DNA of 64,000 nt from an uncultured bacterium (GTDB taxonomy: Bacteria; Omnitrophota; Omnitrophia; Omnitrophales; Aquincolibacteriaceae): the NCBI GenBank assembly GCA_964562525.1, contig CAZLTL010000003.1, forward strand, positions 4,115-68,114, read 5' to 3'. The notes under the pieces were generated by a model, which searched no databases, was not told where the DNA came from, and saw only the letters and a program-made list of their open reading frames with translations. The first letter of the stretch is position 1; the number at the start of each line of letters is the position of its first letter. A program made the translations under genes and the position numbers. Positions 6,101 to 59,408 of this stretch are shown here, piece by piece.

Positions 6101-9100
6101 TCCTGCGGATAACGAATAAAGACTGCGATGAAAACTAAGCGATGAAGACGTGCACCACCCCACCATAAAGTCTGCGGATAAATACAAAATGGGGTTACGA
6201 AATTGAATACCTGCAAGATGTGTCGCGGGATATTGATCCGAAGCCCACTTTCCATTATGAACACTCCAACTTGCCGTTTCGCCCATATAGGGCCCGGCAT
6301 GCTTCAATAGGGCCTCCCAAGATTCGTAAACCGCTTGCCGAATAATGACTTCAAGATCGTCTTGTGTCACTTTTGCGTCTGCTTCAAATAAACGAAAGAC
6401 GCGTTCAACCTCCGCAGCAGGCGGGGCCTCCACAATCGGCAGAGGTCCTTGTTTATTCATTTCGCTTAAGAGCGCAGTTTCTTCAGTTTCTGAAAGTTGA
6501 CGATCATTAATCCCCATGTATTTTTTGGGATGAACCGAAGTCCGTGTTTCGGAGCGTTGCAGCTTCACCGCGGAAATAACCCAATAATCTTTTTTGCTAT
6601 CGGTCAAATCGAACGAAATACTTTGGAAGCCGAAATCCGATAATGCGTCTTTAATTTCATCTTGGCTGTATTGACGATATTGAAACCCCTCAGCCAATTT
6701 GGATTCAGGCGGATAAGTCATGATAAAAATACTTCCGCCCGGTTTTAATACGCGCGAGGCATCTTGAACGGCACTTTTTAAATCTAAATGCCCGATGCTT
6801 TCGGGATAAATGACCGTGTCATAACTTTGCTTTTGAAACGGTAAAAGCTCCCCATGCGCGACAACCGTTATGATTTGACTTCGCACACCTTCACTCTGGT
6901 TGATAATTTGCAAAAATTCAGGCAGAACATCCGTCCCCGTCACTTCCGCCCCATACCGCCTAATCAAATCGCCTTCAAGCGCACCGATGCCGATTCCGAC
7001 AGAAAGAAGTTTTTTACCGCGGCTTCTTGCTCCTATCTGATCCGCCACATACTGTCTCAGCTTTGGATAACGAAGCAACGAACTCATATCTGCCCGAACA
7101 TAACCCGGATCAATGCGAGCAAAAGGCCCGTAAATTCTTTGGGTCTGCCGGACATTCTTTAAGATGCGTTTAACGTCAACGGCCCGTCCCGCCCTGGTTA
7201 ATTCTTCTGCGACTTCATGTGCAAAAGCTTCCGCGGGGCGGCCCAAAATATAAAGACGAACCGCGGCAGCGAGAATGACAGCGAGATAGTCTTTTTGTTC
7301 ACGCTTTTGGATGTGACGGCTCTCAAAAGCATTCATAACATCCTCTTTCAATCCGCGAAGATCTGAAAGCGTGTAACTCATACTCTCAACTTCTGTATAA
7401 ATCTCATCCAATTTCCCACGCATTTCGGAGCGGTTTAATTTCAAAACAAGGCTTTGCGGGTTTTCCGTCAGCTCAAATCCGAGGCGTTGCAACGGCACGG
7501 CAAAAACAGAACTCTGACGGGCTTCTTCGGCAGATAAATAGAAAAATAAATCTTCCGGCTTAGGATTAAAGTAAGTGCTGAAATAAATTTTTAAAAAATC
7601 AACTAAGCGGCGTCCATGCCCTTGACCACGGTAACCAGGTAACCCCGCTTCAGGTTCAAAAATTTGAAAGCGCAGCTGAAAGCTTTTTTCACCGATGCGG
7701 TTAAAAACAACATAACCAAGAATCGGAATATCTTGATCACCAAAAAGGATAATACCACCCAGATTGTCACGCCGACTCCAACGATAGAAACGGTTGTAGT
7801 TACGTTTACCGCTAACATCTGTTCCATGATCCCAAATAAAAGCGCGAGCATTGGTGTGAAGCACATCTTCATGATCAAGCGGTATGTCAGCCCCATCGCG
7901 AGCCATAGCAAGCCCGCGCCTTCCAAGCTCTTGAAGCAACTTTTGAAAAAATGCCTGTGATTCTTCAACACTAAAAAGATGGCTTTTAATTTCTGGGGCA
8001 CTCTCAGGTATGTGAGCTTGCGATGGCTTATTGAGAACTTCTTTTTTTAGAGCTGTCAAAGCGTAATAACCTACCGTTATTCCGATCAAGGCTATACTTG
8101 CAGCCACGATTGAAAGTGCCGAAGCTCCGCCCAAAATAAATATCAGTCCGACAACTGAGAGATTCACCCGCAAGTAAGTTTTAAGATCAAAACTGGGCTT
8201 TTGCGAATTCACCATATAGTTACGGAACAGCTGCATGAAAAGACCGAGGGTAAAAATAGTGGGTATGCGTAATAATTCCGGAACAATATCTTGTGCGATG
8301 TGATGCTGTGCTAGGAGCACGGGCAAACGCCCCCAAACACCTTTAAGATCTTTGCCCCACTGACTGCGAGTGGAATATGCGGCCTGAAGCTCGTCGATTT
8401 TATCCGGTGCCACATCTCCGCGTGTTTTTATTTCTGCCACACCGCGACGATTCCAATAGCCATTGAAGTAAACCGATATTAGGCTACTGAATGATACGCC
8501 GACAAAACCGCTGATTGCCGCGCGCAAAAGTGGCGAAGTAAATAAATCAACCCAATAAACATTGGCGGCAAATGCCACCACGCCCGTCAAAAATCGCACA
8601 CCCATAAATGCTGTAAAACGCTTTTTGACATGATATTGGTAAGCGGGATAATCACTGATCAGCTGCGTGTAATAATCTGCAATCGCCCCGGTCACAGAAG
8701 CGATCAAACCCGAAGCAACCAAGCTTCCCAACGCAAAATCGCCCCAGTAAAAAGAATTGATCCATGAGTAAAGGTTAAAGATAAAAGGAAAGCCAAAATA
8801 CCAGCTCGCAAGCTCAATCAATCCCCACGCCACCGCGCCTATCGCAATATGAAGATAAAACCGTTTTTTTGAAATTTGTTTATCAGAGGCAGCAACATCA
8901 GAGTATTGTTGATTAATCTTACGTACTTCAGAACGACTGACAACAATCACCTTCCAACCTTGATCATGCAAATAGCGCATTCCAGCAAGGTTATTGCGAC
9001 TCGCAACGACAGCGGTAAAAACATCATCATACTGAGATCGGTCGGGACCATTACGAAAAACCGTGGTAAAAGCAACATGAAATCCCTGCTCTAAAAGAAC

Positions 9101-12100
9101 CCGCACTGCGGCATAATTTTGATAATGATCGGACGCTACATAGACAAGCCCATCATCTTTCACAAGCTGTGCAGCCATCTCCGTAAAAACAGCCATATTC
9201 CCCGCTCTGGGGGTCGGCGAATTTACAGATACAAAATCCATCGAGCCCTTTCCGTGCTCCTTTAGAAATTCTTCATTGGTTGAATGGGCATCGTAATTTT
9301 CAGTTCCAAACATCTGAATTTGTAAGCCGGCTTTTGCAAAATAGGTTTGTGCTTGCGGTAAAAACCAACCCTCCCCCATCCCTAAATCAACGCCCTTTAA
9401 CTTTGGCCGCCCGTCAAATTGAGCCTTAATCAACCGCACAAAATCGGGAATAGGATTATTAATATCCGCCGACAATTCTCCTTCGGGCCACAGCATATCC
9501 ACACCCTCTTTAACTGTCGAAACAACGGTCGCAAAAGCATCCGTTGCTTTGGTTTCCTTCTCACCTCTTGCTTCAGAACGGTTCGCGGTCGTTCGCTGCT
9601 TCAGATCTTGAACGGGTAGAATCCAGTGCTGGGCCTTTGTTTTTTTAAGGAAAGCGTCAACGCGCTTATGGGTCACATCTTTGTGAGCGTGAATATCAAG
9701 AAAAAGCCGATCGGCTTCTTCTTTGTTGTCAGGTGGGTAATAACCGCGTGAAAGATTAAAAAGTACCCGTAAATAAAGATCCCCCAGACGAGATTTCGTG
9801 ATTTGGCTTTCCGCATCCACACGAATATGAATAGGGTTACGGCTGACCAGTCCCGCTAGCCAAGCGTTATACAAATCGTGCGTCTTAAATGCATATTTAC
9901 TGGTACTGTGGTCACGGTAAGCTTTAAAGACATTGAACGCAGCATTAATCGAGTGTGTTTTGATCCCATCTTTGTCCTTAAAAATTTGATAGATTGCATA
10001 AGCCACGGGCGTTCCGCGATCACTCGCATCTTTAAGATCAATCATATTGAAAAAAGTGACGCCGTAAACATTGCCCGGCAAAACAGGAACACTGACCATT
10101 TCCAACATTAACTTGCCGGGCTTAAGTGAATACAGGGTATGTCTTGCGTCTTTGGCGTTATCACGCATTGCGGTAAAATAGCTATGGTCAAAATAGTTTT
10201 CCATTTCAGGTGCCCCGCGCACCGCTTGCGCGAAACGCGTGACCTCCTGATGCGCTAATTCCTCGGCCAATGCATCGGACCGCACATTGGGCAAACTGCG
10301 AATTATTTTCAATCTCAGCGCGTCGGCCTGCTCTGATATTGTCATTTTGGATTTGGCAGCGCGAGCCTCAGAACGGCGGACAGGAATTCGAACTTTGACT
10401 TCGTTTACTAAGTTCTCAGGCAAGGGCTGAAAACCGCCCATTCGCATGAGATAGTTTCGACCGCTTAATCCTTCGATAAAAACCCGCTCGCCGTAGCGCT
10501 TTTGCTGATTGCGGTGAAATGCTTGCGCTTCTTCGGAAGGATCAACTTCAATCCATACCTCCGAGATACCTCTTTCCTTCATGTCAGAGAAAAAACGGTC
10601 GCGTAAACGGGTCGCTAACTTTAGGCCCTGCCGCCGCCACTTTTTAGCTACAAATAATCCGGTTGTGCGGACGCGCCCTGATGTTCCGCTCAAAAGACTA
10701 TCGTAAGCCTGCACCGCGGCCAATTCAGGCTTGCCATACTTGCCGGTTATTTTCCATTTAGAACTTACGTAAGCAATCCAGGCATAAGGCGGAATGCGCA
10801 CAGCCCATTCCTGCGAAAATTCAACGGCCTTTTGTTTTTCTTTCAAACTGAGGTCGGAATACTTTGCAAATGTAATTTTGTATTCATGATCCGCATTTTT
10901 CAAATCTGAATATGCCTGAAGTAATTTAAAAATCAACGCGCCCGCGGTAAAAACAACCGCAGCCGCGACAAAAGCAACCCCAAAGATAACGCCCCAAAAA
11001 GCGAATCCAAAAAAAGTTTTAAAAGCAAACCTGGCATCCTCCGTTTTATCGAGCCATTCGGGCTTATTTTTTTGTTGGATTAACTGCGGCCTGCTTTCAC
11101 CCTCACGCGCCTCCGAGCGCTGATAAATGCTGCGCGTCAATCCGGCAAGTTCCGAGACATTCACCTTAATTCCATCTCCCCAGCGAAAAGGCTTGATCGC
11201 GATATAGTTCGCTTTATGATTAGGAAAAGATTTCAATTCAACCAACGTTTCATCTCCGTTGGCTCTCTCAAATCCAATCTCATTCGGACCGTACCCGCGA
11301 AGATAAACAGCTTCCTCCTTTTGCCCATTCAAAAAAGCCTCCGGCTCAGAGCCATTGGTCGCCAAAGTAAACCACCCGCCCGTATAGGAAACACGCACAG
11401 ACTCAAAATGCTCTCGCATGACTCCGTCCGCATCCGCTTCGACCACAGCAAAACGAAACTCGCGCCCATCTCCCGTCCCTTGAAAAAAACGATCCGGAAG
11501 CATAAGCTCGAAATCACGCGGAATCAAAACTGCATCTTGATTTTTAGCTCCAAATTCCGAAAGAGTTTCAGCAAGGGAAACCGCATCGAACTTACTCGGG
11601 CGAACGGAAAGCTGTAAATCTTCAAAACGCCAAAGACGCGATTCCGAACGCCGCAAGGCGGGGCTGCGGATCTCTTCCCATGTAAGATTGCTTCGATTAA
11701 GAAAATCTTGAATTTCTTGAACAGCTTGATCGAGCCCCTGATTCATGGCTGCAGTTAATTCGGGTCGAACCCGTTCGCGAACTTGACGGCGATGATCTCC
11801 GTCGCGTGCTGCAACCAACGCGTTGAGTGCGTACTCCAGACGAAGCCATTTTTGGGCGGGCACGGTTCGCATTCGAGCAAAATACTTTTCGACGCTTAAA
11901 TGCTTTTCATCCGCATAAATATCTTTGAGATGAATGGTTGAAATCAAACTGTCCACCGCTTCTACATTTTCGTGAAAATCATCGACCAGTAGCGCATGGT
12001 CTTTGGCGATACCTGCAGATTCAAGATGCTTTTGAATAGCTTTCAGCTTTTCTATGCCCGCCCCATCCGTAAAAAGCCAATCCGTAATAGCACCTTCCCC

Positions 12101-15100
12101 GAAAATAGCCGTGGTCGTAGCAATAGTTTCCGGGCGAATTTTTTGGGGCCGCGCAGTCACAGCAACGATACGAACACCCTTTTTCCGCAGCTCTTGGTAA
12201 AAACCAATATCTAAATCAGATGCAGGTTCAAAATAACCGTTCTTTTTCATCCAAGCATGCATCTTATCCACAAACGGAAAGACAAGCCGGGCCGCCATGC
12301 TTCGCGCATTTTTTTCACCACTAAACTTTTCGGTAAGCTTTTGAATTAAAGACTGAATTTGCCCTTCGGAGCCATGCCATCCCCTTGTGCTAAAAGTCGT
12401 ATTGTCCAAATCAACATAAAGCACATCCAGCTGCTTGGCATTTGCTGCGCGCAAAAGCATGGCCTCAATCTCCTGCCATGACCGCGCTTCAAAGTGACGC
12501 CCGGCAAAAGGGCCTTTCCAACCGACCTTTAACTTCTCCCGCGCTTCGGAACGTTTATCCGTTGATTCCGGCTTTCGGATAATAAAAAAATCAAATAAAT
12601 CCGGGCTCAAAAATAAAGGTTCATCCCTCATCGCCTGCGGACGTTCTTTTCCATTAAGCGCAAAAACAGAGGGCTCCGCCTGAAGAGACTGTCTCAGATT
12701 TGAAAAATCGGTTACATTCGCCTTCCGCAGCTGATCAGGCGTCCACCATCCGCTGCTTTCAAGCGGTTGCCGGCTCCGCGTTTTAAAGCTTCCGTCACGG
12801 ATCGAAGCGAAGTACTTAAAAGAATCATCCCGAACGGGCAGCAAATAATGCCCGCGTGGCTGCCACCCCCGCGCCTTTTTGAATTCACTCGCAGCCCCGG
12901 GCTTAGGACGAAAAACAACTAAATCGCCCGCACGAATTTCATGCAAGTCTTGATTCAAACGGTATCGGAGCCCATTCACATTTTCAAAAATCTTAGCCAC
13001 AGCGTAATCAGCCAGTTTTTCCCCGCCTAAATACTGATTTAAAAACTCTAGCTGCTTGCGATTCAAGTTAATCTTAACTTGCGGCTCACGCCCCGGTTCC
13101 GGTCCGTCCAAAACAAACCGAGACTCGGAGCGGCGGATCGGATAACCGGAAACAATATGAAAATTAAGATCGGAAATCTTCGCCGGATCAACTTGTCCGC
13201 GGACAAAAACATACCGATCCATATGCCGTATTTTTCCGATATTGTTTTCTACCCCGCGATCCGTAATCACCATGACATTATTTGTCAGCGGATCGAAACG
13301 CACTCTCCTCCCAATTAATTCGGATTTGTCATAATCTAAATCTTGATCATCGACATCCGCGAGGATCCATCGATCGCCGTCTTTTTCATGTTTAAACTTA
13401 ACCTTTCGTATTCCTTCAAACGGCATGAAAAAAGCATCTTGAGCTGACGCGAAAACAAGACCGGGAGAGTGAAACTTATCAACAACATCCTCCCAGCTCC
13501 GGCCTCTGAAATCATTCAAATTAAAACCCTGCTTTTGGTCATACTCCAATTCCAAAGAAAATGCATCCCGGCCGATCCAAAAATCCCTGACATTTTTCCA
13601 ATGAAGAGGAATCAGCCTCTTGACCGGAAGACTTATAATTTCCGAAAAATTTAACCCGCGTGAATATTTTTCAAAAATTAAAAGCAACGGATAAACTCTT
13701 GTAATATCAATTTCAAAATGGCCCTGCTGATCGAAACCAACCGCTCCTATTAAAAATCGCAAAACAGCCCCGCCCACACCTCGTTTTCGATTGAGTTCAT
13801 AAACGGGGTCGGCCCATGTACCGGAGGGATAAACATCATGAAACTCATATACTTTTTTATCCCCCTCATCGCGTACATTGATGCTGACGGCACCGCCAAA
13901 TTCTTCCCATTGCTGGAAAATTCCTTGAAAATAAGGGTAAGTGATTTTTGCTCGAAATGACTGCCCGGTTATAGCATCCATGCGTCCAGGCACAATCGTC
14001 ACAATGACCGATGCTTGCGTGCGAGGAATTTTTACTTCGGCAACCAGCGGCGCATCTCCCTCGCGGGCTTGGTTGAGATACTCATTAACTTCACGTAATT
14101 CCGAACGCCTTACCTCCCGAATATGCCCAGCATGAATATTGGCGACAGTTTTGAGCGCTTCAAAACCTCGGTTAACGGACTGCGCGGCAAAGGTGGAGGC
14201 GGCAACCGAATCGAACCAAGCAATCGGAACTTGTGCAATTTGTTTTTTATTGAGAGCCGCAAGTAAAAGTAATTCGGAGTCAAAGGAAAAACTAAAATCA
14301 CGCGCCACAGGCAAAATCGCACGCAAGGTTTCAGGAGAAAATATTTTGAAACCAGCTTGGGTATCGCGAATATTTGAAATCGGCGAAAGCAGTAAGCGAA
14401 TAGCCCAGTTGTACATCAAGCTTGAAATGAGAGCCTGCCAATTGCGTCCTTCCGTGTACGATCCTTTTCCGCGGCGAACGCCAATCGCGGCTCCGTTCAA
14501 AACTGTTTCAGCCATCGGTTTAATTAAAAGCCCGGTTAAAAGCAAGTTGGCCGAAATATCCATGTCGGTATAACCAATGTAATGTTTTCCGCGCGGTCGG
14601 ATGCTATTGAGAGCTGCGTTTAAGCCTAAATGCACAGCCCCGCCCTTCGGCCCCCTTTTCACACTGGGTGCTAATCTTAAAATTTGAACTTGCTGCGGAT
14701 CCAGTTTTGATGACCGGCGCAAACGTTTTAACAAACTGACCGTTTCCAAATCAGGAGAACCATCATCCACAAAAACCATCCGCCAATGAAACTGCGGATT
14801 GATTTCACGCAACATTTGGAGCTGTTCAAACTTCACTCGAAAGGCATCTTCTCCGGCAGGATAACGCGCTGATGGCCGGTGCAAACGCTCAATTTCATTG
14901 TAAGCGGGAATTCCCCAGGTAACCGTAACATCCTGTGTAAGCCCGCGAATCACATCCATCGACTCATCGATTTTCTTTTGCTCAATGCCCTTCGCATCGC
15001 GGCCGCGCAAAGTAAAATCATCGCTTCGCGTTTCAGACCGCATAACGTTTCGCCCAGACTTCAATTCTGCCGATTGATGAGAGGGCTCTTGATCGCGGAG

Positions 15101-17371
15101 CTTTATTTCACGCGCAGTGTTTTCAACTTCATACCGATGACTAACAAAAAAATCGTACAGCTCAGCTACGGAACTTAAAGCACGTCCCATCCAATAAACT
15201 CCAATACCAAAAACTGCCGCAATGGTACCAGCAACGAAACCTTGTCTAAAATGTTCAAACCTGTCGTCAAAGAGAAATAGAAATCCAATACCCATAAACG
15301 CGCTGAAACTTAGAGCAAATACTTTCTGCATTCCAACCCAATAAATTCGGTATTCACGCGGAAGAAGAACCAGATTCTTTTGAATCCATGCATCTAGCCC
15401 CTTGCTCACTAAAGACTCAAAAAGAAAACTTGAACGGATCCACTTCCAAGCTCGAATAATTTTCTTCTCTTTCTCCGCAAAGAAATGATCTCTTGCAACT
15501 GTCTGAACAGCTTGATCCCAAACCCCTTCAGTTATGGTGGATGCACCCATCGGATTTGCAATCTTTCTCACGGCATCAACTGGTTGAACCAGTAAGTTAA
15601 CAGGAAGGGCTTGATCCATCGGGATGAGAAATGGACTTTGAGTCATTGCTTGAGATACAGCTTGAGCCGTTGTCGGCGACTTTAAATGACTCCGCCATTG
15701 GTAGCGAAATCTTTGTCTCGTAGGCTCCGACATAAAATCTGCCAGCCAACCATGAAGAGGCTCGGCAATTTTAACCGCTTGATTAAGCTTCTTAAGATCA
15801 GCAAGCCGCAAAATAAGCCGCTTGCGCCAATTTAAAAGCAAATCGTAAACCTGACCGGGATGATCTTTTGCATAAGCCTGAAGTAAATAGCTCCAATAAG
15901 CTTTTTGAAGATTAACTTGCCCATTTACAGCTTTCATTTGCGATCGCCAGCCTATGTTTCCCTGCATTAATTCCACATAGCGGTCAGCCCCTTCCAAAGA
16001 ATCAATACTCGGCGTGATAACCGCAAAATTCCAACCCTGCTTTTGGGCGATTTGCTCAAGCCCTTGCTTGTGAAAGCCCCCCGAGACAAACACCACCGTT
16101 TCCGATGAGCGAAAGCTGGCAGCGATATGTTTCTGCATTTTCTCTTCACGCTTAAACTGAACCGCGTAAAAATCCTTAAATGACTGCCAATCAGGGCTCT
16201 CAAGATTCATTCTCTTCACTGTCTGCCAATCGGACAAACTCAACTCCATTCGAACCAACTTCTCAAGCAAGCGAATCCGCAAAGTTTGTTTAAGTAAAAG
16301 ATGTTGCGCGGATTTTGTAAAGTAAGTTGAAAGTTTCTGTATCAAAAACCCTTGATACTCAGCTGCAAGCTCAGCTGTTTTAATTTCTTGCCATTCACGC
16401 TCCGAGCGCAATGCAAAATGATAAAGCCGCTTCTCCAATGCGTTCACTTTATTAAATAAGTCGGCAGGCAAAAGCTGTTCTAATTTTTGTGCGGATTGCG
16501 TAACAGATAGTCGCCCTGTCTGGACGTCTTTTTGCAGGGCCAATAATGCCAAACGCTCCGCTGGACCCGCAACCTGTTTGGCCAACGACCCAAGACACCG
16601 CTGCCAAAACTGAACTATCGCCGGGCGTTTTAAATGATTTTGAATTTGAACCTGACGGCGAACGGCTTCTAAGTGAGGAAAGTGCTCTGCGAATGATTCA
16701 TCCGGAAACTGCAGAATAAGCGGCAGCGCCTCGAACGAGTCTTCGGAAATAAATCTGTCCCATTTCAGAGCTTCTGTAGAATAACTTTTCTGCTTGGATT
16801 TCGAAATAATTTCACGCGCACGCTCGAGCCTAACTAAAACAGACTCCTGTTTTTTTATCGCGCTTTGATAAAGTTCTACAGCCCTATAATAAAGTTCCTT
16901 AGACTCCGCGGCTTGCGGCATAAGCAAATCAGATAAAATTAAAGCTGCGGCACCCCCGCTAATGTTTTGAGCCACAACATCTGCTTCGATTTTTTTTCGC
17001 AGCCAATCACGATCAGGAAAACTATGCTCTAACGCCAAGTGTGACGACTCATTTAAACCTTCCAAGTGCAAGGCAAAAGCACCGTAACGCGCACGAATAT
17101 CTTCAATCAGTTTCCAAATCGATTTTTGTGCCGAAGAAACAGCGTGCGCGTCCTCAATCACCAGAAGCGTTTTACCTGACTCTCCATGCTTGCGATTCTG
17201 AATCCGCCCCCATTTTTCTGAAAGCTGCAGTTTGTTAATTTGAATGGCAGATTCAGAAACAACAGTCGCAAGGCGCGGAGCCGCTTGTGCGTCGGAAGAC
17301 AAGAACCCCGATAATTGCAAAGCAATTAACAGCACTGCCACCGCTTTTTTAAAAACGTTCTTTTTCGCCAT
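3185..17371 (-). CDS. Giant multidomain secreted/membrane protein 1 (4728 aa). Order: signal peptide, TraB/GumN-like N-domain, TM pairs, GT2, HAD, GNAT, SAM-MTases, punctuated by recurrent RSExR motif
   Basis: Uninterrupted 14.2 kb ORF. N-terminal MAKKNVFKKAVAVLLIALQLSGFLSSDAQAAP signal peptide. Recognisable catalytic motifs across the whole length (see domain features). Opposite-strand ORFs inside are short shadow ORFs. Confidence 0.85.
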   Translation of the reverse strand: MAKKNVFKKAVAVLLIALQLSGFLSSDAQAAPRLATVVSESAIQINKLQLSEKWGRIQNRKHGESGKTLLVIEDAHAVSSAQKSIWKLIEDIRARYGAFALHLEGLNESSHLALEHSFPDRDWLRKKIEADVVAQNISGGAAALILSDLLMPQAAESKELYYRAVELYQSAIKKQESVLVRLERAREIISKSKQKSYSTEALKWDRFISEDSFEALPLILQFPDESFAEHFPHLEAVRRQVQIQNHLKRPAIVQFWQRCLGSLAKQVAGPAERLALLALQKDVQTGRLSVTQSAQKLEQLLPADLFNKVNALEKRLYHFALRSEREWQEIKTAELAAEYQGFLIQKLSTYFTKSAQHLLLKQTLRIRLLEKLVRMELSLSDWQTVKRMNLESPDWQSFKDFYAVQFKREEKMQKHIAASFRSSETVVFVSGGFHKQGLEQIAQKQGWNFAVITPSIDSLEGADRYVELMQGNIGWRSQMKAVNGQVNLQKAYWSYLLQAYAKDHPGQVYDLLLNWRKRLILRLADLKKLNQAVKIAEPLHGWLADFMSEPTRQRFRYQWRSHLKSPTTAQAVSQAMTQSPFLIPMDQALPVNLLVQPVDAVRKIANPMGASTITEGVWDQAVQTVARDHFFAEKEKKIIRAWKWIRSSFLFESLVSKGLDAWIQKNLVLLPREYRIYWVGMQKVFALSFSAFMGIGFLFLFDDRFEHFRQGFVAGTIAAVFGIGVYWMGRALSSVAELYDFFVSHRYEVENTAREIKLRDQEPSHQSAELKSGRNVMRSETRSDDFTLRGRDAKGIEQKKIDESMDVIRGLTQDVTVTWGIPAYNEIERLHRPSARYPAGEDAFRVKFEQLQMLREINPQFHWRMVFVDDGSPDLETVSLLKRLRRSSKLDPQQVQILRLAPSVKRGPKGGAVHLGLNAALNSIRPRGKHYIGYTDMDISANLLLTGLLIKPMAETVLNGAAIGVRRGKGSYTEGRNWQALISSLMYNWAIRLLLSPISNIRDTQAGFKIFSPETLRAILPVARDFSFSFDSELLLLAALNKKQIAQVPIAWFDSVAASTFAAQSVNRGFEALKTVANIHAGHIREVRRSELREVNEYLNQAREGDAPLVAEVKIPRTQASVIVTIVPGRMDAITGQSFRAKITYPYFQGIFQQWEEFGGAVSINVRDEGDKKVYEFHDVYPSGTWADPVYELNRKRGVGGAVLRFLIGAVGFDQQGHFEIDITRVYPLLLIFEKYSRGLNFSEIISLPVKRLIPLHWKNVRDFWIGRDAFSLELEYDQKQGFNLNDFRGRSWEDVVDKFHSPGLVFASAQDAFFMPFEGIRKVKFKHEKDGDRWILADVDDQDLDYDKSELIGRRVRFDPLTNNVMVITDRGVENNIGKIRHMDRYVFVRGQVDPAKISDLNFHIVSGYPIRRSESRFVLDGPEPGREPQVKINLNRKQLEFLNQYLGGEKLADYAVAKIFENVNGLRYRLNQDLHEIRAGDLVVFRPKPGAASEFKKARGWQPRGHYLLPVRDDSFKYFASIRDGSFKTRSRQPLESSGWWTPDQLRKANVTDFSNLRQSLQAEPSVFALNGKERPQAMRDEPLFLSPDLFDFFIIRKPESTDKRSEAREKLKVGWKGPFAGRHFEARSWQEIEAMLLRAANAKQLDVLYVDLDNTTFSTRGWHGSEGQIQSLIQKLTEKFSGEKNARSMAARLVFPFVDKMHAWMKKNGYFEPASDLDIGFYQELRKKGVRIVAVTARPQKIRPETIATTTAIFGEGAITDWLFTDGAGIEKLKAIQKHLESAGIAKDHALLVDDFHENVEAVDSLISTIHLKDIYADEKHLSVEKYFARMRTVPAQKWLRLEYALNALVAARDGDHRRQVRERVRPELTAAMNQGLDQAVQEIQDFLNRSNLTWEEIRSPALRRSESRLWRFEDLQLSVRPSKFDAVSLAETLSEFGAKNQDAVLIPRDFELMLPDRFFQGTGDGREFRFAVVEADADGVMREHFESVRVSYTGGWFTLATNGSEPEAFLNGQKEEAVYLRGYGPNEIGFERANGDETLVELKSFPNHKANYIAIKPFRWGDGIKVNVSELAGLTRSIYQRSEAREGESRPQLIQQKNKPEWLDKTEDARFAFKTFFGFAFWGVIFGVAFVAAAVVFTAGALIFKLLQAYSDLKNADHEYKITFAKYSDLSLKEKQKAVEFSQEWAVRIPPYAWIAYVSSKWKITGKYGKPELAAVQAYDSLLSGTSGRVRTTGLFVAKKWRRQGLKLATRLRDRFFSDMKERGISEVWIEVDPSEEAQAFHRNQQKRYGERVFIEGLSGRNYLMRMGGFQPLPENLVNEVKVRIPVRRSEARAAKSKMTISEQADALRLKIIRSLPNVRSDALAEELAHQEVTRFAQAVRGAPEMENYFDHSYFTAMRDNAKDARHTLYSLKPGKLMLEMVSVPVLPGNVYGVTFFNMIDLKDASDRGTPVAYAIYQIFKDKDGIKTHSINAAFNVFKAYRDHSTSKYAFKTHDLYNAWLAGLVSRNPIHIRVDAESQITKSRLGDLYLRVLFNLSRGYYPPDNKEEADRLFLDIHAHKDVTHKRVDAFLKKTKAQHWILPVQDLKQRTTANRSEARGEKETKATDAFATVVSTVKEGVDMLWPEGELSADINNPIPDFVRLIKAQFDGRPKLKGVDLGMGEGWFLPQAQTYFAKAGLQIQMFGTENYDAHSTNEEFLKEHGKGSMDFVSVNSPTPRAGNMAVFTEMAAQLVKDDGLVYVASDHYQNYAAVRVLLEQGFHVAFTTVFRNGPDRSQYDDVFTAVVASRNNLAGMRYLHDQGWKVIVVSRSEVRKINQQYSDVAASDKQISKKRFYLHIAIGAVAWGLIELASWYFGFPFIFNLYSWINSFYWGDFALGSLVASGLIASVTGAIADYYTQLISDYPAYQYHVKKRFTAFMGVRFLTGVVAFAANVYWVDLFTSPLLRAAISGFVGVSFSSLISVYFNGYWNRRGVAEIKTRGDVAPDKIDELQAAYSTRSQWGKDLKGVWGRLPVLLAQHHIAQDIVPELLRIPTIFTLGLFMQLFRNYMVNSQKPSFDLKTYLRVNLSVVGLIFILGGASALSIVAASIALIGITVGYYALTALKKEVLNKPSQAHIPESAPEIKSHLFSVEESQAFFQKLLQELGRRGLAMARDGADIPLDHEDVLHTNARAFIWDHGTDVSGKRNYNRFYRWSRRDNLGGIILFGDQDIPILGYVVFNRIGEKSFQLRFQIFEPEAGLPGYRGQGHGRRLVDFLKIYFSTYFNPKPEDLFFYLSAEEARQSSVFAVPLQRLGFELTENPQSLVLKLNRSEMRGKLDEIYTEVESMSYTLSDLRGLKEDVMNAFESRHIQKREQKDYLAVILAAAVRLYILGRPAEAFAHEVAEELTRAGRAVDVKRILKNVRQTQRIYGPFARIDPGYVRADMSSLLRYPKLRQYVADQIGARSRGKKLLSVGIGIGALEGDLIRRYGAEVTGTDVLPEFLQIINQSEGVRSQIITVVAHGELLPFQKQSYDTVIYPESIGHLDLKSAVQDASRVLKPGGSIFIMTYPPESKLAEGFQYRQYSQDEIKDALSDFGFQSISFDLTDSKKDYWVISAVKLQRSETRTSVHPKKYMGINDRQLSETEETALLSEMNKQGPLPIVEAPPAAEVERVFRLFEADAKVTQDDLEVIIRQAVYESWEALLKHAGPYMGETASWSVHNGKWASDQYPATHLAGIQFRNPILYLSADFMVGWCTSSSLSFHRSLYSLSAGKIKSTIHGASLVFGGYLRHVVQVVQYPGLQPIYVDVTGRQLESHAMYRDIDATPGARPLFNELFEKGYVGLSPENAEKIGLVFRRGQAREEGSDYDVLTKFRTLQTGYTSHDYTPLQEYGHEYFHAMTPEIARERSALDEAYAPELDRDFSGEKITGMWPLNPVVQVVEQIVEAIAGVELKATDLNQTNNQNIKNIDWMAELMDWRIPMMLSGFFGVVVSALSLTLNGVSWLRLIPLAMSVFGFTALGISFFIKIKNLYRSGGAFDSEFNQPDSSLQFPESNERSETRSTHSGQVRDMNLSADDQWFFDLLRDVSKPILAQKYQILLGGLPSVWKKTWAGIFVPSPMDEVIQALKPIVTGEHDFIDLGSGLNTSLIVAAHLGVHKAVGIEGDESLFADGKVLIDRFTVEFERQRIGFGASSQYASEKIATINGNFLDASRINLITLNGKIEPERKRIYYYFAGGSAGLENMKHRSQLLERIENAPAGSYFVLYGAQPDMKGELDVEMLKEKFGDPRVMTFPNGSGTNTYIFNIGRSEARADGQRLQDKLRRIKHIIGELEDMTVGIEAFTLMKTEDASESVIKISFNSWMNEHRFGNDIGFLYKRELSPDEIVSDGSIVLRTLDLLMLIESDSNSANLEKYKSSKIFLDDAGESEDKPIPYETLGVYFLLQMYLNSTEVWNPFRAKLDELKRLWEEEGTREDLVELIRSVHRSETRDLGIWIGSDAVTPVYSEERDDEIRFQDWLEAQMAADTAIEVRLVQQARQISPQAKALWQQALTRWKDAIAAKQIPKTAPVIFYSPEIESQLIEFIELTQKSFETLYPGQSTKQYRFALVFRTDYERATFEKKFGKLKQVKMYGPQAMGQLATDVFNSAKWRDHYGVFGAREILAGMAWQRNLSAESLPTEVSFALVPEAMAFFAATRTDEIEAAWATGFARWIQHLQIRKGEGIFLLSSVLELFSAAARRVMTSA
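6700..7110 (-). other. Class I SAM-dependent methyltransferase-like domain inside giant protein 1 (approximate coordinates)
   Basis: LSVGIGIGALEGDL (motif I-like), DTVIYPESIGHL, LKPGGSIFIMTY (post-III motif). Confidence 0.5.
11820..12430 (-). other. HAD-superfamily phosphatase-like domain inside giant protein 1 (approximate coordinates)
   Basis: Motif I VLYVDLDNTTF (DxDxT), motif II VAVTAR, motif IV LLVDDFHENVEAV. Verified on minus strand near 12395-12430. Confidence 0.55.
14190..14970 (-). other. Family-2 glycosyltransferase (DPM1/GtrB-like) domain inside giant protein 1 (approximate coordinates)
   Basis: IPAYNE, VFVDDGSPD, GPKGGAVHLG, YTDMD (DxD), DTQAGFKIF. This is the canonical GT2 motif order. 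Confidence 0.7.
15960..17190 (-). other. N-terminal domain of giant protein 1, paralogous to the N-domain of giant protein 2; possibly TraB/GumN/Tiki-like (approximate coordinates)
   Basis: LLVIEDAHAVSSAQKSIWKLIEDIRARYGAFALHLEG ... VVFVSGGFHKQGL in protein 1. The counterpart in protein 2 is VILIQDAHAIPDAQKNIHALIRHFEKKYGVKNVALEG ... VILVAGGFHTQGM. The two His-containing motifs (xxAH / GGFH) resemble TraB/GumN GxxH motifs. Confidence 0.35.
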
Positions 17372-22695: not shown

Positions 22696-25590
22696 TTATC
22701 CTTCAGATTTCATGAAGCGCGCAACTTCCTTTTCAAGAAAATCACGCTGCTGCGTTAACTCCGTCACACGGGCTTCCAATCGATCGCGTTCCATAAGCAA
22801 ATCGCCGCGCATCGCTTTTGAAGTTGATTTTTGAACCTGCAAATCAGCTTCGTTGATACGCTTTTCAAGAATTTTCTTCTCTTCGTCTTCAAGCTCAATT
22901 TGATTTTGAATCACCTCGACGAGTGACTCCTCAATTTCTTTCAGCTCTTTAACCTGTTTCGGGTCCGCAACTTCCAAATCAACCGGCGCTAAACCAGATG
23001 GGGACGCAATCGCGCCTGACTCCGGCGCCATCTTTTCAATTTCGTTGCGCAAGCTTTGCTTATCGACATTAGAAGTCGGCGTGGGCAATTCAAGGCTCTC
23101 AGCCGAAGGTGCCGGAACTTCACTTGGCGGAAGCTTGGCCACCGCCGCCTCTACTTTTTCGAGCTCTTTTTTCAAACTTTCAAGTTCAGTTGTCTTTTGG
23201 TCCAGGCGCTCAATCAGCATTTCCTGACGCTGTTCGGGCGTAACTAATTTTTGCGCGTTATCAATCGCATCATCAATAAAAACGTAAGGCACTGTGACCA
23301 TCGCCGAGCGGAATTGCTGCCCGCCCGCGAGCGAAGCCTGCGCACGGAGAATTTCAAGATTCTTTTCAAGCTGTTCAATTTCAATCGCCTGCGCCTGAAT
23401 CATTAAGCTTTCCGTTTCAATTTCTTTCTTCAGGTTCTGCGCCGCTGCATCATCAGACTTGCCGGCTTTATGCGTTAAGGCAGCCGCTGCATTATCACGG
23501 CCAAACAAGAAAACGCGCGTCGCCTTGACCGGAAAAAGAAGCGTTCCGCTCACTTTTTCAGAAGTTGTTTTTGCGGCTTTGCTGCCGACCAATTGATCCA
23601 GCTCATTTAAAAGCTTGGTTTTGCGCTTATCGCGATCTTCAATGTCTTCATAGCGTGAACGAATTCCACGCTCCACTTTTTTGATTTCTTTGCGCAATTC
23701 TTTCGGATCAACCGCATCGGACGTTTCAAGTTTTTCAGCCAAGCGCTCCTGTTCAATCAGCGCCAGCTCATCATTAAACGCGGTTGAAAGGGTATCCACG
23801 ACATTCTGAGACATCGCCACTTTTTCGCGCAAATGCAAACGAAGCTCGAGCAATTCTTGAGTGCTCTTGGATTCATATTTTGTATCTTTAAAGGGGTTCA
23901 CTGCAACCTTGCTCACGGCAAGCCCGACCTTTTTGCGGAAGCTGACCAGCCAATCGTCCGAGCCGAAACGCGCGGCATACTGAGCAAGCTTTTGACGGAA
24001 GGGACTGTCTTGATCTTTGTCGTCAGCCTGAACCTCAGTTGCTGAACCGGCAGGCAAGCCGCTGATAAGCGCGGAAACTTCATGATGCTGTTTATACAGT
24101 GTTTCTTTCTCATCCAAAGTTTTTTTCTTTTTATCCGAAATTTTATAGAGCTCTTTCGCGTCCAATGCCTGAACTTTTTCAAGAGGCGTTTTCGGTTCAC
24201 CCGTAAAAGGAACCCAGCCTTCGTAAAAAGCTTTCCCGACACCAAGCTCGGAACGCCACCCTGCCAACTGCAGTTTCTCGGCTTCAAGCGCATCGCGCTC
24301 CGCTTCAAGCGACGCGCGCCAACGTTCAATCGCTTTTTTGAAATCTTCCGATTGATTGTCTTTATGCTGCTTGATTTTCTTGTCCAAGTTTTTGAATTTT
24401 TCTTTCAATTCCGCTTCGCGCCGCTTCAAATCCTGAGTCAGACGGGCAACGCTGTCGCCTTTTTCCTTTTCAAGCGACTTACTGCGCTTTTCAAGGCGAT
24501 CCAACTTACGCTCCAAAGCTTCACGTTCGGCAGGATCCGCATCCGTGCCCAGTCCGGCCAACCGTTTCTTGGTATCGTCGATTTCGGCGTTCAAAGCATC
24601 CCGTTCGGAAGTTAAATACTCGACCGGCTGCTTAAGCGAACGCAAGCGGTTCTCCGCCTTCGCGCCTGAATGAGTATGGGGATAGCGTTTCGCGACATCC
24701 TGATAATAAATGACGGCACTTTGAACAAAGTTTTGTTTTTCGTAAAATAAACCGATTTGGTAGTTTTTCTCGGCATTCTTTTCATCAATTTCTTCACTAA
24801 TTTTCGCGGCTTGTTCCGTTCCGGGAGCGCCGGGATATTTCTGCATAAATCCCTGAACCTGCTCAGAGGCTTTTTCGAGCGCACGTTCATCGCGGTTTTG
24901 AGCGATGGAGCGAAAGTAAGCGGTTTCGGCGAGTTCATACCGCGCCTTTTCAACCAAGCTGCTTTGCGGGTAATTATCGATTAAATCCTGAAAAGACTGC
25001 ATCGCGGCGTCAAATTGGGCGGCTTTTTTCTGAGCGACCGCTAAACTAAATTGGGCTTGATCGCCAAAAGCGCCGTAAGGGGCAAATTTAACGATATGTT
25101 CAAAAGCCTGCACTGCAATCGGGAAAGCAGGACGGATTTCAACGCCGAAAAGCTTTCCTTTTTTACCGGAAAGAAACATATTTCCAAGATTGAATTCGCG
25201 CTCAATGACCTCTTCAAAGCGGTCATTTTGAGGGTAAACTTCAATCATCTTCTGATAGGCTTTGAGTGCTTTGTAGTAATCGCCCTTTTCCTCATAAACC
25301 GTTCCCAGGCGGTATTGTGCTTCAGGCGCAACACGGGAAGCGGGAAAATCCTTAATTAAAGACTCTAACTCGGTAATGGCTTTGTCGTATTGCTTCTGCT
25401 TATAAAGTTCGAGGGCGTATTCCAGCTGCTGGCTGCTATTGTCGCGCGTATCATCTTCTTTAGGGCTGACAAACTTCCCCAACTCGGGGGACCAAACCCA
25501 GTCTGCATAGAGATTAAAAGGGCTGAATGCTGTAATCAGGGCAAGCAGAACCGGCAAGTAAGATTTTTTATGTATCATGATGAATTTCAA
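22696..25590 (-). CDS. Secreted BamD-like TPR domain fused to ~600 aa coiled-coil (964 aa)
   Basis: Signal peptide. N-terminal TPR repeats with BamD/YbgF-like spacing (YALELYKQKQYDKAITELESLIKDFPASRVAPEAQYRLGTVY...). The remainder is heptad-rich and charged (KLDRLEKRSKSLEKEKG...). TTG start per track; an ATG lies 12 nt downstream. Confidence 0.7.
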   Translation of the reverse strand: MKFIMIHKKSYLPVLLALITAFSPFNLYADWVWSPELGKFVSPKEDDTRDNSSQQLEYALELYKQKQYDKAITELESLIKDFPASRVAPEAQYRLGTVYEEKGDYYKALKAYQKMIEVYPQNDRFEEVIEREFNLGNMFLSGKKGKLFGVEIRPAFPIAVQAFEHIVKFAPYGAFGDQAQFSLAVAQKKAAQFDAAMQSFQDLIDNYPQSSLVEKARYELAETAYFRSIAQNRDERALEKASEQVQGFMQKYPGAPGTEQAAKISEEIDEKNAEKNYQIGLFYEKQNFVQSAVIYYQDVAKRYPHTHSGAKAENRLRSLKQPVEYLTSERDALNAEIDDTKKRLAGLGTDADPAEREALERKLDRLEKRSKSLEKEKGDSVARLTQDLKRREAELKEKFKNLDKKIKQHKDNQSEDFKKAIERWRASLEAERDALEAEKLQLAGWRSELGVGKAFYEGWVPFTGEPKTPLEKVQALDAKELYKISDKKKKTLDEKETLYKQHHEVSALISGLPAGSATEVQADDKDQDSPFRQKLAQYAARFGSDDWLVSFRKKVGLAVSKVAVNPFKDTKYESKSTQELLELRLHLREKVAMSQNVVDTLSTAFNDELALIEQERLAEKLETSDAVDPKELRKEIKKVERGIRSRYEDIEDRDKRKTKLLNELDQLVGSKAAKTTSEKVSGTLLFPVKATRVFLFGRDNAAAALTHKAGKSDDAAAQNLKKEIETESLMIQAQAIEIEQLEKNLEILRAQASLAGGQQFRSAMVTVPYVFIDDAIDNAQKLVTPEQRQEMLIERLDQKTTELESLKKELEKVEAAVAKLPPSEVPAPSAESLELPTPTSNVDKQSLRNEIEKMAPESGAIASPSGLAPVDLEVADPKQVKELKEIEESLVEVIQNQIELEDEEKKILEKRINEADLQVQKSTSKAMRGDLLMERDRLEARVTELTQQRDFLEKEVARFMKSEG

Positions 25591-25647
25591 TAGGTTGAAA
25601 GGAGTACTCTATCCGCTCACCCAAGGGCTGTCAATCAGGAACCCTTT

Positions 25648-25942
25648 AGGTCGTATTGACATTGTTTATGCGTTGGCGTTGTGAGCGCCATAGCCGACTT
25701 ATCCCAGGCGTGACGACGAAGGCTTGTCCCATGCGACAAGTCTAGGAGGAACAACGCCGGAGAATCGGCTATGCCGCCTCAACCCGATTTGCTCCTGCTT
25801 TGTGGGACAGGACGAGTTGCTACGCATCACTGCGTCTCTCGATCGTCGACGCACCGCTCAGGGTGCGCCTTCCTCCTCATTCCTTGTGCTGCTTGCAAGC
25901 CGTTCCTGTCGCCAGCGCAGAAACAATGTCAACACGACCTAG
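25648..25942. mobile_element. MITE-like non-coding element: 295 bp bounded by 32-bp imperfect terminal inverted repeats (29/32 match), with a hairpin-rich interior
   Basis: TAGGTCGTATTGACATTGTTTATGCGTTGGCG at 25648-25679. Its reverse complement, with 3 mismatches, is at 25910-25942. Interior holds several local stems (e.g. cttgtcccatgcgacaag; catagccga / tcggctatg). No transposase ORF inside. Confidence 0.4.
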
Positions 25943-26440
25943 CAGCTCCATTCGCCGAATTTGAACCCCGGGGCTAATAGCTTGAAATGTTTTCCTCATT
26001 CTTTCCGCTCGATCCGGCGGATAGTAAATAGCCTGCACTTCAAAGTTTTTTTGAAGTTCTTTTAAAGCCCCGATTTGTTCGGCGCTATGCCCCTCAAGAA
26101 CAATTTTACTGATTCGGGAAACCCCTCTTTTACGAAGTTCAGGCACCAGCTCAAACCGTGAAAAGCGCTGAAAACGATCTGAGCAAGCGCCCCATAAATC
26201 GGCATGGCGGCCTTGCTGAATTAAGGTCACTTCGCCGCAAGAACCGCGCAATGTCTCTATACGTAAAGAACCCGGCCAGCCTTTGGGTAAAAAAAAAGGT
26301 ATCTGAATCAATATCCAGCTGATGCCGATGGCGCTGCACCAAAACTGTGCCGACTTAAAAGAAAAACGCATACGCCTCCTAAAACGTAATAACTCAAAAC
26401 GAGTTTCAAGTCCGGCTGTGCCAGAGCAAGACTGCTCCAT
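25877..26440 (-). pseudogene. Detached, degenerate metallo-beta-lactamase-like C-terminal piece of ComEC, in a different frame overlapping comEC by 133 nt; its 3' end overlaps the MITE-like inverted repeat
   Basis: LRIETLRGSCGEVTLIQQGRHADLWG resembles the ComEC MBL start (FLDVGQGDAxLI) but lacks the HxHxDH metal-binding motif. Confidence 0.35.
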
Positions 26441-27786
26441 TTAAAGGTAGCTATCGCATCAACAACCCAAAGAGAACTCGCCAGCAAAAGCTTCACGACC
26501 CAGAAAGCGGGCATTCCCAGAAAAGGCAAGAGAGAAAGAAACCCCAAAGGCAAAATAAGCGCAAAGGCCGGCACAACGGCGAGATTCGCGAAAATACCGC
26601 TCCAAGAAAAAGTTTGAAAGTGATAAAGAACCACCGGATAACTCGCCAAAAAAGCCGCAAGGCTGACATCCAGCCCGGGCAGAGGTAAAACTTTTTTGAT
26701 CAAAGGCGCGACAAATAAAATGCCATACATCGATAAAAAAGAAAGCTGAAACGAGATGTCCCAAATCTTTTTAGGATCCGCGATCAAAAGCACCGCGAGG
26801 GCAAAATTAAGCCAATAAGCCAAAGGCTGCGGCCTTCCCATGGCCCATGCGGCCCAAACAACAATCGCCATCATGCCCGCACGCTGAACCGCAATCCCCC
26901 AACCGGTTAAGGCCATATAAATAAAAATGCCCAAACCTGAAACAATAACTGCACCCACGGGACGCAAACGTAATAACAAGGTCAGGCCAAAAATAAATCC
27001 TGCAATGACGGCGGCGTGAAAGCCGCTCACCGAAAGCAAATGCGAAGTGCTCGAGCGTGTAAATATTCTCCGCAGCTCAGGGTCCGGAACCCGAAAACCC
27101 AGCAAAAGCGCTTTTAAAACTTGGCTGTGTCGAGGCGAGTATCGCTTTTCAATTTGAAGCGCCAGCGATTCGCGCGCAATCTGCAAAATGCGCAACGGAA
27201 GAAACCGACTATCCCATCCATTCGGAATCATATCGCCTGATTTTTTAACCCGGATTTGAGCTTGAACATTTTTCATAAATAAATTTCTCCGCATCCACTC
27301 CGCGCCAGGTTCGCCTTCGCGCGGAAAGCGAATAAAACCCTTCACAATAAGACGGTCGCCGATCAAAGGTGCTTCTTCCATGTCCGAGACAGAAACCTCT
27401 ACTTTACTCCTTGTGGCATGCCAAGGGCCTTCCTCCATTCGAAAGCGGACACATTCAAACTCCCACCTTTGTTTTGAATAGGCTTTTTCGGGAAATGTTT
27501 TAACCATTCCCTCCATCACCACTAACTTTCCGGGCACACGCCATGCAGAATGATTCCAATCATCCCGCGCAATCGTAACTGAAGCCAGTCCATAGAGAAA
27601 TGAAACAATGAGCATTACCCCCAACTTCCATCGACTCTCTTTTAAAATCAAAAGCGCCGCTAATGCTAAGCCACACACCATTGAAGTTCCCTCTTCGATT
27701 GGAAAATGGCTCAGCTGAGACAAGCTTGCCCCGACCGCGATGCCCGCCGCCGTTAAAACCCACTTAAGCCTTAATATATAAATCAT
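26308..27786 (-). CDS. comEC: ComEC/Rec2-like DNA internalization channel (DUF4131 + competence domain, no intact MBL domain)
   Basis: Polytopic membrane protein. Competence-domain signature TSHLLSVSGFHAAVIAGF. 492 aa. Confidence 0.7.
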   Translation of the reverse strand: MIYILRLKWVLTAAGIAVGASLSQLSHFPIEEGTSMVCGLALAALLILKESRWKLGVMLIVSFLYGLASVTIARDDWNHSAWRVPGKLVVMEGMVKTFPEKAYSKQRWEFECVRFRMEEGPWHATRSKVEVSVSDMEEAPLIGDRLIVKGFIRFPREGEPGAEWMRRNLFMKNVQAQIRVKKSGDMIPNGWDSRFLPLRILQIARESLALQIEKRYSPRHSQVLKALLLGFRVPDPELRRIFTRSSTSHLLSVSGFHAAVIAGFIFGLTLLLRLRPVGAVIVSGLGIFIYMALTGWGIAVQRAGMMAIVVWAAWAMGRPQPLAYWLNFALAVLLIADPKKIWDISFQLSFLSMYGILFVAPLIKKVLPLPGLDVSLAAFLASYPVVLYHFQTFSWSGIFANLAVVPAFALILPLGFLSLLPFLGMPAFWVVKLLLASSLWVVDAIATFKWSSLALAQPDLKLVLSYYVLGGVCVFLLSRHSFGAAPSASAGY

Positions 27787-59040: not shown

Positions 59041-59118
59041 TGGCGTCCCCAAGCGGATTTGAACCGCTGTTACCAGGATGAAAACCTGGTGTCCTAGACC
59101 GACCTAGACGATGGGGAC
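59041..59118 (-). tRNA. tRNA-Glu (anticodon TTC), CCA encoded
   Basis: GTCCCCATCGTCTAGGTCGGTCTAGGACACCAGGTTTTCATCCTGGTAACAGCGGTTCAAATCCGCTTGGGGACGCCA. Confidence 0.85.
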
Positions 59119-59149
59119 GCGAAAACCAAATTGTATAAGTTCAAACCAC

Positions 59150-59229
59150 GCTGTTACCAGCCGTCTTGTTTATTCGCCAGCGGCGAAATAAACCCGGTGT
59201 CCTGGACCGACCTAGACGCTGGGGACACG
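59150..59229 (-). pseudogene. Degenerate tRNA-Glu-like copy: intact acceptor-5'/D-arm/anticodon-stem, a 25-nt hairpin insert in place of the anticodon loop, decayed T-arm
   Basis: GTCCCCAGCGTCTAGGTCGGTCCAGGACACCGGG + TTTATTTCGCCGCTGGCGAATAAAC + AAGACGGCTGGTAACAGCG + TGGTTTGAACTTATAC. Confidence 0.5.
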
Positions 59230-59238
59230 AGATCGAAA

Positions 59239-59244
59239 ATTATA
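59239..59244 (-). promoter_or_regulatory. Candidate -10 box (TATAAT) about 10 nt upstream of the tRNA-Glu-like leader and tRNA-Glu
   Basis: Minus strand reads AAGTATAATTTTCGATCTCGTGTCCCC. No convincing -35 hexamer. Confidence 0.3.
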
Positions 59245-59395: not shown

Positions 59396-59408
59396 ACGCA
59401 AATATCGT

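Follow-up and report, generated by a model that had tools for sequence, protein, structure and literature searches.

The window, that is the whole 64-kb stretch of DNA that was analysed, contains a gene group in which all members are encoded on the minus strand, in the order of a ComEC part, an ORF that overlaps it, the element described here, a BamD-like gene, and LptE. The annotation of homologues of the BamD-like protein as Candidatus Omnitrophota places the window in this phylum. The overlapping ORF (25877-26440, minus strand), hereafter the ComEC C-terminal ORF, is read in another frame than the ComEC N-terminal part and has no Pfam match. Between this ORF and the BamD-like gene lies an element with inverted ends, and the features of the locus are the following.

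22696..25578, minus strand: 960-aa TPR/YfiO (BamD-like) gene, the downstream neighbour
25606..25634, minus strand: sigma-70-like promoter of the BamD-like gene (TTGACA-17-TAGAGT), a neighbour outside the element, intact
25637-25635, minus strand: native stop codon TGA of the ComEC C-terminal ORF
25635..25646, minus strand: orphaned native 3' end AAGGGTTCCTGA of ORF 25877-26440, now cut off by the element (from the L033/L034 alignment)
25647..25941, plus strand: whole element with both TA copies, 295 bp; similarity to other copies drops sharply beyond its ends, and L033, L034 and L035 lack it at the orthologous site
25649-25939: transposon proper, 291 bp
25647..25648: left copy of the TA target-site duplication (a single TA in the empty site of L033 versus TA[element]TA in the window)
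25940..25941: right copy of the TA target-site duplication (comparison of the window with L033)
25647..25678, plus strand: left terminal inverted repeat (TIR), with TTGACA at 25657-25662
25910..25941, minus strand: right TIR, with TTGACA at 25931-25926 on the minus strand
25679..25783, plus strand: left structured domain (closing stem 25678-25711 with 25754-25783, hairpin 25720-25728/25735-25743)
25784..25805, plus strand: central linker, which varies most, carries indels and has a weak 4-bp hairpin
25806..25909, minus strand: right structured domain (closing stem 25806-25820 with 25895-25910, hairpin 25850-25855/25862-25867)
25877..25939, minus strand: element-encoded tail GRVDIVSALATGTACKQHKE plus stop codon, fused to the ComEC C-terminal ORF 25877-26440
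26308..27786, minus strand: ComEC N-terminal part (DUF4131 and Competence domains), the upstream neighbour

An inverted-repeat search of the window placed the arms at 25647-25678 and 25910-25941, with 32 nt each, 91% complementarity and 231 nt in between. The 21-nt arm core TAGGTCGTRTTGACATTGTTT has only two sites in the 64-kb window even when up to three mismatches are allowed, and none is expected in shuffled sequence (100 shuffles), so that the 32-bp inverted repeat that had been pointed out in the first-pass annotation of this DNA is real and non-random. Its consensus, TAGGTCGTrTTGACATTGTTTmTGCGyTGGCG, was correct, and the embedded TTGACA was found as described, in both arms. The coordinates that had been given, 25648-25942, have the right extent, but the true arms begin one base further left. 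The G+C content is 0.55-0.59 inside the element versus 0.42-0.48 in the flanks, and no second copy was detected in the 64 kb by nhmmer and the core search.

The ComEC-BamD locus with and without the element

Empty sites were traced via the contigs that carry the closest BamD orthologues, which are L033 (96% identity), L034 (85%) and L035 (70%). In all three, the gene order is the same as in the window, the element is absent, and the distance from the ComEC C-terminal ORF to the BamD-like gene is 56 nt. The empty site of L033 reads …GGGAGCCTT-TA-ATGGGTTCCTGATTGACAG (the TA context is also given as CCTT-TA-ATGGGTTCC), whereas the filled site on the minus strand of the window reads …TGGAGCTGC-TA[GGTCGT…ACGACC]TA-AAGGGTTCCTGATTGACAG (also given as CTGC-TA[element]TA-AAGGGTTCC), and the difference between the window and L033 is the element plus one TA. 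The second filled/empty pair is found at the end of a photolyase gene, which is AAAGCC-TAA-GGG in the empty L037 versus AAAGCC-TA[element]TA-GGGG in the filled L010, with an identical photolyase C-terminus LYARLKA* in both. Two independent filled/empty comparisons at the sequence level thus demonstrate a TA target-site duplication, and the view that there was no clear target-site duplication was mistaken, as the duplication is TA at the ComEC-BamD locus as well as at the photolyase locus.

The last residues of the ComEC C-terminal ORF are …EPLMGS* or …DRQGS* in the relatives, and its TGA stands directly before the -35 box of the BamD promoter. The insertion point in the window is a Leu codon three codons ahead of this native stop. 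In consequence the ORF of the window reads …ELL followed by GRVDIVSALATGTACKQHKE, with 20 element codons (25939-25880) and a stop (25879-25877) that replace MGS. It had been noted before that the right repeat overlaps the last codons of the ORF, and indeed the right arm together with 33 further bases covers the last 20 codons and the stop. The -35 box of the BamD promoter is 11 nt away from the insertion point, and the promoter is conserved base for base in L033-L035. The element accounts for the hairpin-rich spacer, for the 20-residue foreign tail on the ComEC-like ORF, and also for a contig break in a public assembly (see below).

The proposal that the insertion contributed to the split of ComEC is refuted by the relatives: as L033, L034 and L035 have the same two overlapping ORFs and no element, the insertion did not cause the split. 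ComEC is present as two overlapping ORFs in different frames, of about 485 aa (DUF4131 and Competence domains) and about 147 aa (without Pfam match), in the window at 25877-27786 (minus strand), in L033 at 4086-5944, in L034 at 4092-5944, and in L035 at 421-1640. As this layout is kept in relatives down to 70% BamD identity, the arrangement looks real (separate genes or a programmed frameshift) rather than like a recent pseudogene or an assembly error. At 26286-26294 the ComEC C-terminal ORF contains nine consecutive A (T on the coding strand), at which slippage is possible, but this run cannot alone explain the frame change because it is located downstream of the stop of the first ORF. Further along the minus strand of the window there is a giant ORF of 4,728 aa (3185-17371), and syntenic to it are proteins of 5,246 aa and 6,950 aa with methyltransferase, SNF2 helicase and NUDIX matches (L033 from 14158, L035 from 9965).

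Copies of the family and their insertion sites

Further copies were searched for with the pattern GGTCGTNTTGACATTGTTT, which was scanned against one genome per species, and by an additional metagenome scan. The genome scan yielded loci in which two inverted matches are spaced by about 270 bp: L008, L010 and the contig-end copy L015, all from an uncultured-bacterium MAG, as well as L019 (Omnitrophota GFS_2494) and L013 (Omnitrophica UBA2337). The metagenome scan contributed L021-L023, L025, L026 and L030-L032. Including the window, this amounts to 12 distinct sites of insertion, spread over no fewer than five genomes or metagenomes of Omnitrophota, if one counts the window, L031, L030, L010, L008, L015, L019, L025, L021, L022 and L032 each as a site, and L013, L023 and L026 as a single one. 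The flanks of the copies are unrelated, except for these last three, which represent the same locus in related organisms. Additional copies, for which a BLASTN comparison had been suggested, are thus dispersed over 11 other unrelated loci. The filled L019 and the empty L035 belong to one and the same MAG.

According to BLAST and nhmmer, the copies are 293-296 bp long and 76-97% identical, with the internally deleted L025 as the exception, and nhmmer detected no further copies in any of the loci retrieved. The ends are sharp: similarity stops exactly at TAGGTCGT…ACGACCTA (TA|GGTCGT…ACGACC|TA). In the MAG CAZSVD01 there are three copies with a mutual identity of 92-97%, compared to 76-89% between genomes, and copies that are more alike within one MAG are the pattern that spread within a genome would produce. 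Within the family, the TIR columns are the least variable (21% variable, versus 39-48% in the interior), as is to be expected if the TIRs are the binding sites of the transposase. No match to the element was found in annotated plasmid and phage collections, and blastn against 5,426 complete E. coli genomes gave none either, which means that the similarity to be expected of an ERIC / RU-3 relative was not found there. A full-text literature search that paired "Omnitrophota" with "MITE" gave no relevant paper. This previously undescribed family of Omnitrophota matches no curated family, while the kind itself, the MITE, is already known; this poorly studied, uncultured phylum thereby gains a family of mobile elements for which the exact ends, the TA duplication and the Y-TA-R target are defined. 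The element can also serve as a marker for insertion polymorphism at the strain level.

Two copies deserve mention for their state. L025 (1117-1321) is a 205-bp deletion derivative that has lost nearly the whole left structured domain (alignment columns 53-144) and whose left TA has decayed to CA, and its position still coincides exactly with the stop codon of a gene for an ABC ATPase. The Logan contig L001, from the strain of the window (SRR13355622), breaks 50 nt inside the element, with positions 1-50 of L001 corresponding to 25647-25696 of the window. Such a break is expected if the genome holds further near-identical copies, and it hints at their presence without proving it.

The target context is Y-TA-R, with a pyrimidine before the TA in 8 of 10 sites and a purine after it in 9 of 10. 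The G and C beside the TAs are invariant bases of the element, and it is the outer Y and R that vary. Relative to the host genes both orientations of the element occur. A stop codon was hit exactly at three independent loci, and at these the host stop is rebuilt as TAG from the duplicated TA and the first G of the element. The stop-codon insertions are the following.

L013/L023/L026: GHL10 hydrolase gene
L010: photolyase gene
L025: ABC ATPase gene

In L030, a response-regulator/GGDEF/MshEN gene has become about six codons shorter, with a TGA inside the repeat as its stop. In total, 5 of the 12 copies are at the 3' end of a gene or a few codons from it; the copies other than those at stop codons, L030 and the window are 11-115 nt away from gene starts or ends. 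As the ends of the element read TA|G inward in either orientation, hits in TAA or TAG stop codons would be silent, and such TAR stop codons would by themselves already supply half of the Y-TA-R preference. The stop-codon insertions with their regenerated TAG, together with the covarying two-domain architecture described below, illustrate how such an element persists in compact genomes.

The orthologous copies L013 and L026 differ by 6.1%, and the third-codon divergence of the flanking genes is 8.5% for one and 23% for the other (third-codon identities of 91.5% and 77.1% along L013 733-3158). The similarity of 6.1% to 8.5% indicates that resident copies are under little constraint, and the unequal divergence of the two flanks suggests a recombination breakpoint at or near the element.

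Coding capacity, fold and two-domain architecture

The first-pass annotation had seen no coding capacity in the element, and this is borne out by the family, in which no ORF is conserved: in all six frames the copies differ in their stops and in indels of 1-2 nt. The longest open frame, that of copy L026, matched among 5.8 billion proteins only an ORF that had been called on copy L030, and the 72-aa frame of the window matched among 1.8 billion representatives only two unrelated tandem-repeat proteins. A hidden protein was rejected on the basis of these searches. Prediction of promoters and terminators inside the element gave none, and also the TTGACA of the arms was rejected as a promoter, as a usable -10 box is missing and the one good promoter in the vicinity, that of the BamD-like gene, lies outside the element. 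At the gathering threshold, Rfam detected in the whole window only four tRNAs, and at E up to 10 it gave nothing better than E = 4 in the region 25400-26200. The tRNAs are arranged as two pairs on the minus strand, at 34315-34640 and 59041-59396 (Leu-CAA with Ala-GGC, and Glu-TTC with Lys-TTT), and are unrelated to the element. A retron msr/msd RNA was considered and rejected, as the neighbours are ComEC, the BamD-like gene and LptE, there is no reverse transcriptase, and the element is dispersed.

The internal stems that had been described before are very pronounced, as the interior is strongly structured on both strands. The RNA minimum free energies of the element are -137 and -141 kcal/mol for the two strands, with z = -6.8 each relative to shuffles, and folding with DNA parameters resulted in z = -7.7. 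When the left half is compared with the reverse-complemented right half, the two can be aligned over the full length with about 53-57% identity (79 of 150 bases). This alignment in inverted orientation makes the element a pseudo-palindrome of two structured domains of about 105 nt. Each half consists of the 32-bp repeat, a long closing stem, and the conserved motif GAnGAnGAAGGC-[hairpin]-GTCnAnGA, and the sequence of the hairpin stem is entirely different between the halves (CTTGTCC versus GCGCACC).

For eight full copies, RNAalifold predicted 100 pairs, 18 of which show compensatory changes. In controls, column shuffles gave 6.1 +/- 1.9 such pairs (0 of 500 reached 18) and slid partners gave 1-5. 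In the left domain, 8 and 5 pairs with compensatory changes belong to helices 2 and 3 (RNAalifold and pair counts). The opposite strand folds equally well, with 97 pairs and 19 compensatory ones. Seven left and seven right domains, all read inward, share one fold in which 19 of 26 pairs covary, and one G·U pair is invariant in all 14 half-domain sequences on the inward-reading strand. An assignment of the strand from counts of G·U versus A·C was indecisive, and a pseudoknot of the SD/anti-SD type was rejected by inspection of the alignment, in which the stretches AGGAGGAA and TTCCTCCT do not covary. The paired columns of the interior are not significantly less variable than the unpaired ones (39% versus 48% variable columns, p = 0.18). 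It has to be considered that the correction of quasi-palindromes by template switching can mimic compensatory evolution without selection.

From the comparison of its halves, the interior is apparently an ancient inverted duplication of one end-domain of about 105 nt, of which both copies have been maintained by compensatory substitutions. The fold is best read as a structured subterminal region that would be inherited from the transposition system and needed by it. It is a good deal less likely, and in our opinion doubtful, that the two end-domains are functional nucleic-acid structures and not passive palindromes, either as a ssDNA/hairpin signal for a non-canonical TA-targeting transposition or as a host RNA module at gene 3' ends. 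If the RNA-module reading were true, one could regard the element as a 'stop-codon-seeking' cassette, from which the gene receives a TAG along with a structured 3' UTR.

Identity, mobilisation and relation to known repeats

It is very likely that the element is a non-autonomous MITE of Omnitrophota of about 295 bp, which would be moved in trans by a TA-specific transposase. The element is clearly smaller than about 600 bp, has no ORF, ends in TIRs, is flanked by a target-site duplication at filled/empty sites, is polymorphic in its insertion, has a covarying fold, and is dispersed in multiple copies over 12 sites, with at least three in one MAG. A MITE-like nature had already been considered in the first-pass annotation, and the dispersed copies with unrelated flanks, the conserved TIRs, the non-coding interior, and the two filled/empty pairs with their TA duplication support it.

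The transposase is probably an IS630/Tc1-mariner-like DDE enzyme, by analogy, because the element inserts at TA with a 2-bp TA duplication, and such mobilisation has been proposed for RUP and IS630-Spn1. In the genome, metagenome and viral scans, which required an exact match of 18-19 bases, no autonomous element or transposase with matching GGTCGTGTTGACATTGTTT-like ends and no two-armed match wider than about 295 bp was found. A number of single-arm matches (L003-L007, L009, L011, L012, L014, L016-L018, L020, L024 and L027-L029) were rejected as parents, as they have no similarity beyond the pattern and match by chance within genes that are unrelated; among these, the 23-nt match in L027/L029 lies inside a methyltransferase gene and has no second arm. 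A scan of viral contigs with the TIR core gave one match inside a phage structural gene, which was judged to be due to chance.

The main alternative to the IS630/Tc1-mariner transposase is an enzyme of the IS5 group. IS5-group elements prefer YTAR targets, which the Y-TA-R context resembles, and some of them also give 2-bp duplications, and for the latter reason, and because the parent has not been found, the assignment to the IS630 family is not firm. A mobilisation by an enzyme of another family, such as an IS427-like member of the IS5 group or another TA- or YTAR-targeting transposase, is conceivable, as nothing ties the TIR to IS630, and it should be kept in mind as the less likely case: the duplication is strictly 2 bp with one TA at each of the two empty sites, the G and C beside the TAs are invariant, in contrast to the variable outer Y and R, and IS630/Tc1-mariner elements are characterised by a TA duplication (PMC2229807 for RUP/IS630-Spn1). 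A different aspect is the possibility that the MITE has been exapted, with the fold acting as an RNA at the 3' end of the upstream gene, be it as a 3' stabiliser, an RNase III target or an insulator. This would be compatible with the MITE explanation and does not exclude it, and there are precedents in proposals for Correia and ERIC elements (PMC2229807). The very stable fold (z about -6.8), the compensatory changes within and between the halves, and the location of 5 of 12 copies at or close to gene 3' ends would agree with exaptation, and of the 19 differences between L013 and L026 only about 7 are in paired columns, although about 68% of the positions are paired. We nevertheless regard exaptation as rather unlikely, as the element is found in both orientations with respect to the host gene, its two strands hardly differ in how well they fold, the paired interior columns are not significantly less variable, close relatives lack the element at the same loci, and it contains no terminator-like site.

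The strong and covarying predicted structure and the intergenic position just upstream of the BamD-like gene could also be taken to indicate an independent structured small-RNA gene that serves the ComEC/BamD locus, with the inverted repeat being incidental. Such an sRNA locus had been offered as the second reading of this DNA, but it is highly improbable. Rfam gave no matching family even at E up to 10, the element contains neither promoter nor terminator, and it is found in either orientation at 11 other unrelated loci; the empty sites at the same locus in relatives with 96, 85 and 70% BamD identity have already largely refuted it. As to a chance inverted repeat or a one-off remnant of an insertion sequence deleted in situ, the single copy in the 64-kb window would be compatible with this, but with zero chance matches expected and uniform copies of 293-296 bp at 12 sites in several genomes, this reading has practically no probability left and can be regarded as already refuted.

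For the MITE, the following course of events can be envisaged. An autonomous element elsewhere would supply the transposase in trans, which would recognise the 32-bp TIRs, excise the element, and paste it into a TA, preferably in the context Y-TA-R, whereby staggered cleavage would duplicate the TA. With TA|G at each end, read inward, an insertion in a TAA or TAG stop would rebuild a TAG, and the second reading frame runs into a TGA, which occupies bases 10-12 of the repeat. Genes would thereby tolerate insertions at their extreme 3' end, and it would be such copies that persist. The copy in the window entered the ComEC C-terminal ORF three codons short of its stop, at a distance of 11 nt upstream from the -35 box of the BamD-like promoter, thereby exchanging MGS* for 20 element-encoded residues while sparing the promoter. 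The fold would have a part in transposition, perhaps by providing a subterminal structure for binding or synapsis, and in co-transcribed copies it may additionally work at the RNA level as a 3' stem-loop.

The TA duplication and the long, partly conserved inverted ends are known also from eukaryotic Tc1/mariner-derived MITEs (Stowaway, MADE1) and from Tc1 elements of the IR/DR type, and the literature links TA with IS630-Tc1-mariner elements. These belong to another host domain and have no sequence relation to the element, which has no evident internal direct repeat of the terminal binding site. Among the bacterial MITEs, Correia, ERIC and RUP share TIRs, a terminal TA and stem-loop transcripts, and RUP has been attributed to IS630-Spn1 (PMC2229807). 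Like the element, the IS630-Spn1-associated RUP of Streptococcus pneumoniae is non-coding and multicopy, has TIRs, inserts at TA, and has stops in all frames (PMC2229807), but it has only 107 bp, folds into one stem-loop and has TIRs that correspond to those of a known IS630 member, whereas the element has 295 bp and two internal structured domains. The Correia/NEMIS elements of Neisseria resemble the element in their TIRs (about 24-26 bp), the terminal TA with TA duplication, the filled/empty polymorphism, the stem-loop transcripts, and the position next to or fused with gene ends (PMC2229807). They differ in that they are 107-155 bp long, have an IHF site and outward promoters, and occur in hundreds per genome; in the element no promoter was detected, the copy number is apparently low (at least three per MAG), the phylum is another one, and there is no sequence similarity. 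The enterobacterial ERIC/IRU and YPAL repeats are, like the element, imperfect palindromes with a terminal TA, and they are co-transcribed or co-translated with upstream genes, sometimes as in-frame fusions to ORF ends (PMC2229807), but they are 127-168 bp long and form a single long hairpin, and the element is unmatched in the 5,426 E. coli genomes. The CIR repeats of Caulobacter and Brucella likewise form a secondary structure of two arms with a linker between them (PMC2229807), but they have no TIRs and no proven target-site duplication, whereas the element possesses both, and a terminal stem of 31 bp encloses its arms. Apart from its unusually well-conserved two-domain fold, the element is a feature of an ordinary kind that leaves the current understanding unchanged. 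With its 295 bp and its branched two-domain fold, it is larger and more elaborate than the bacterial MITEs of 100-200 bp that are reviewed in PMC2229807.
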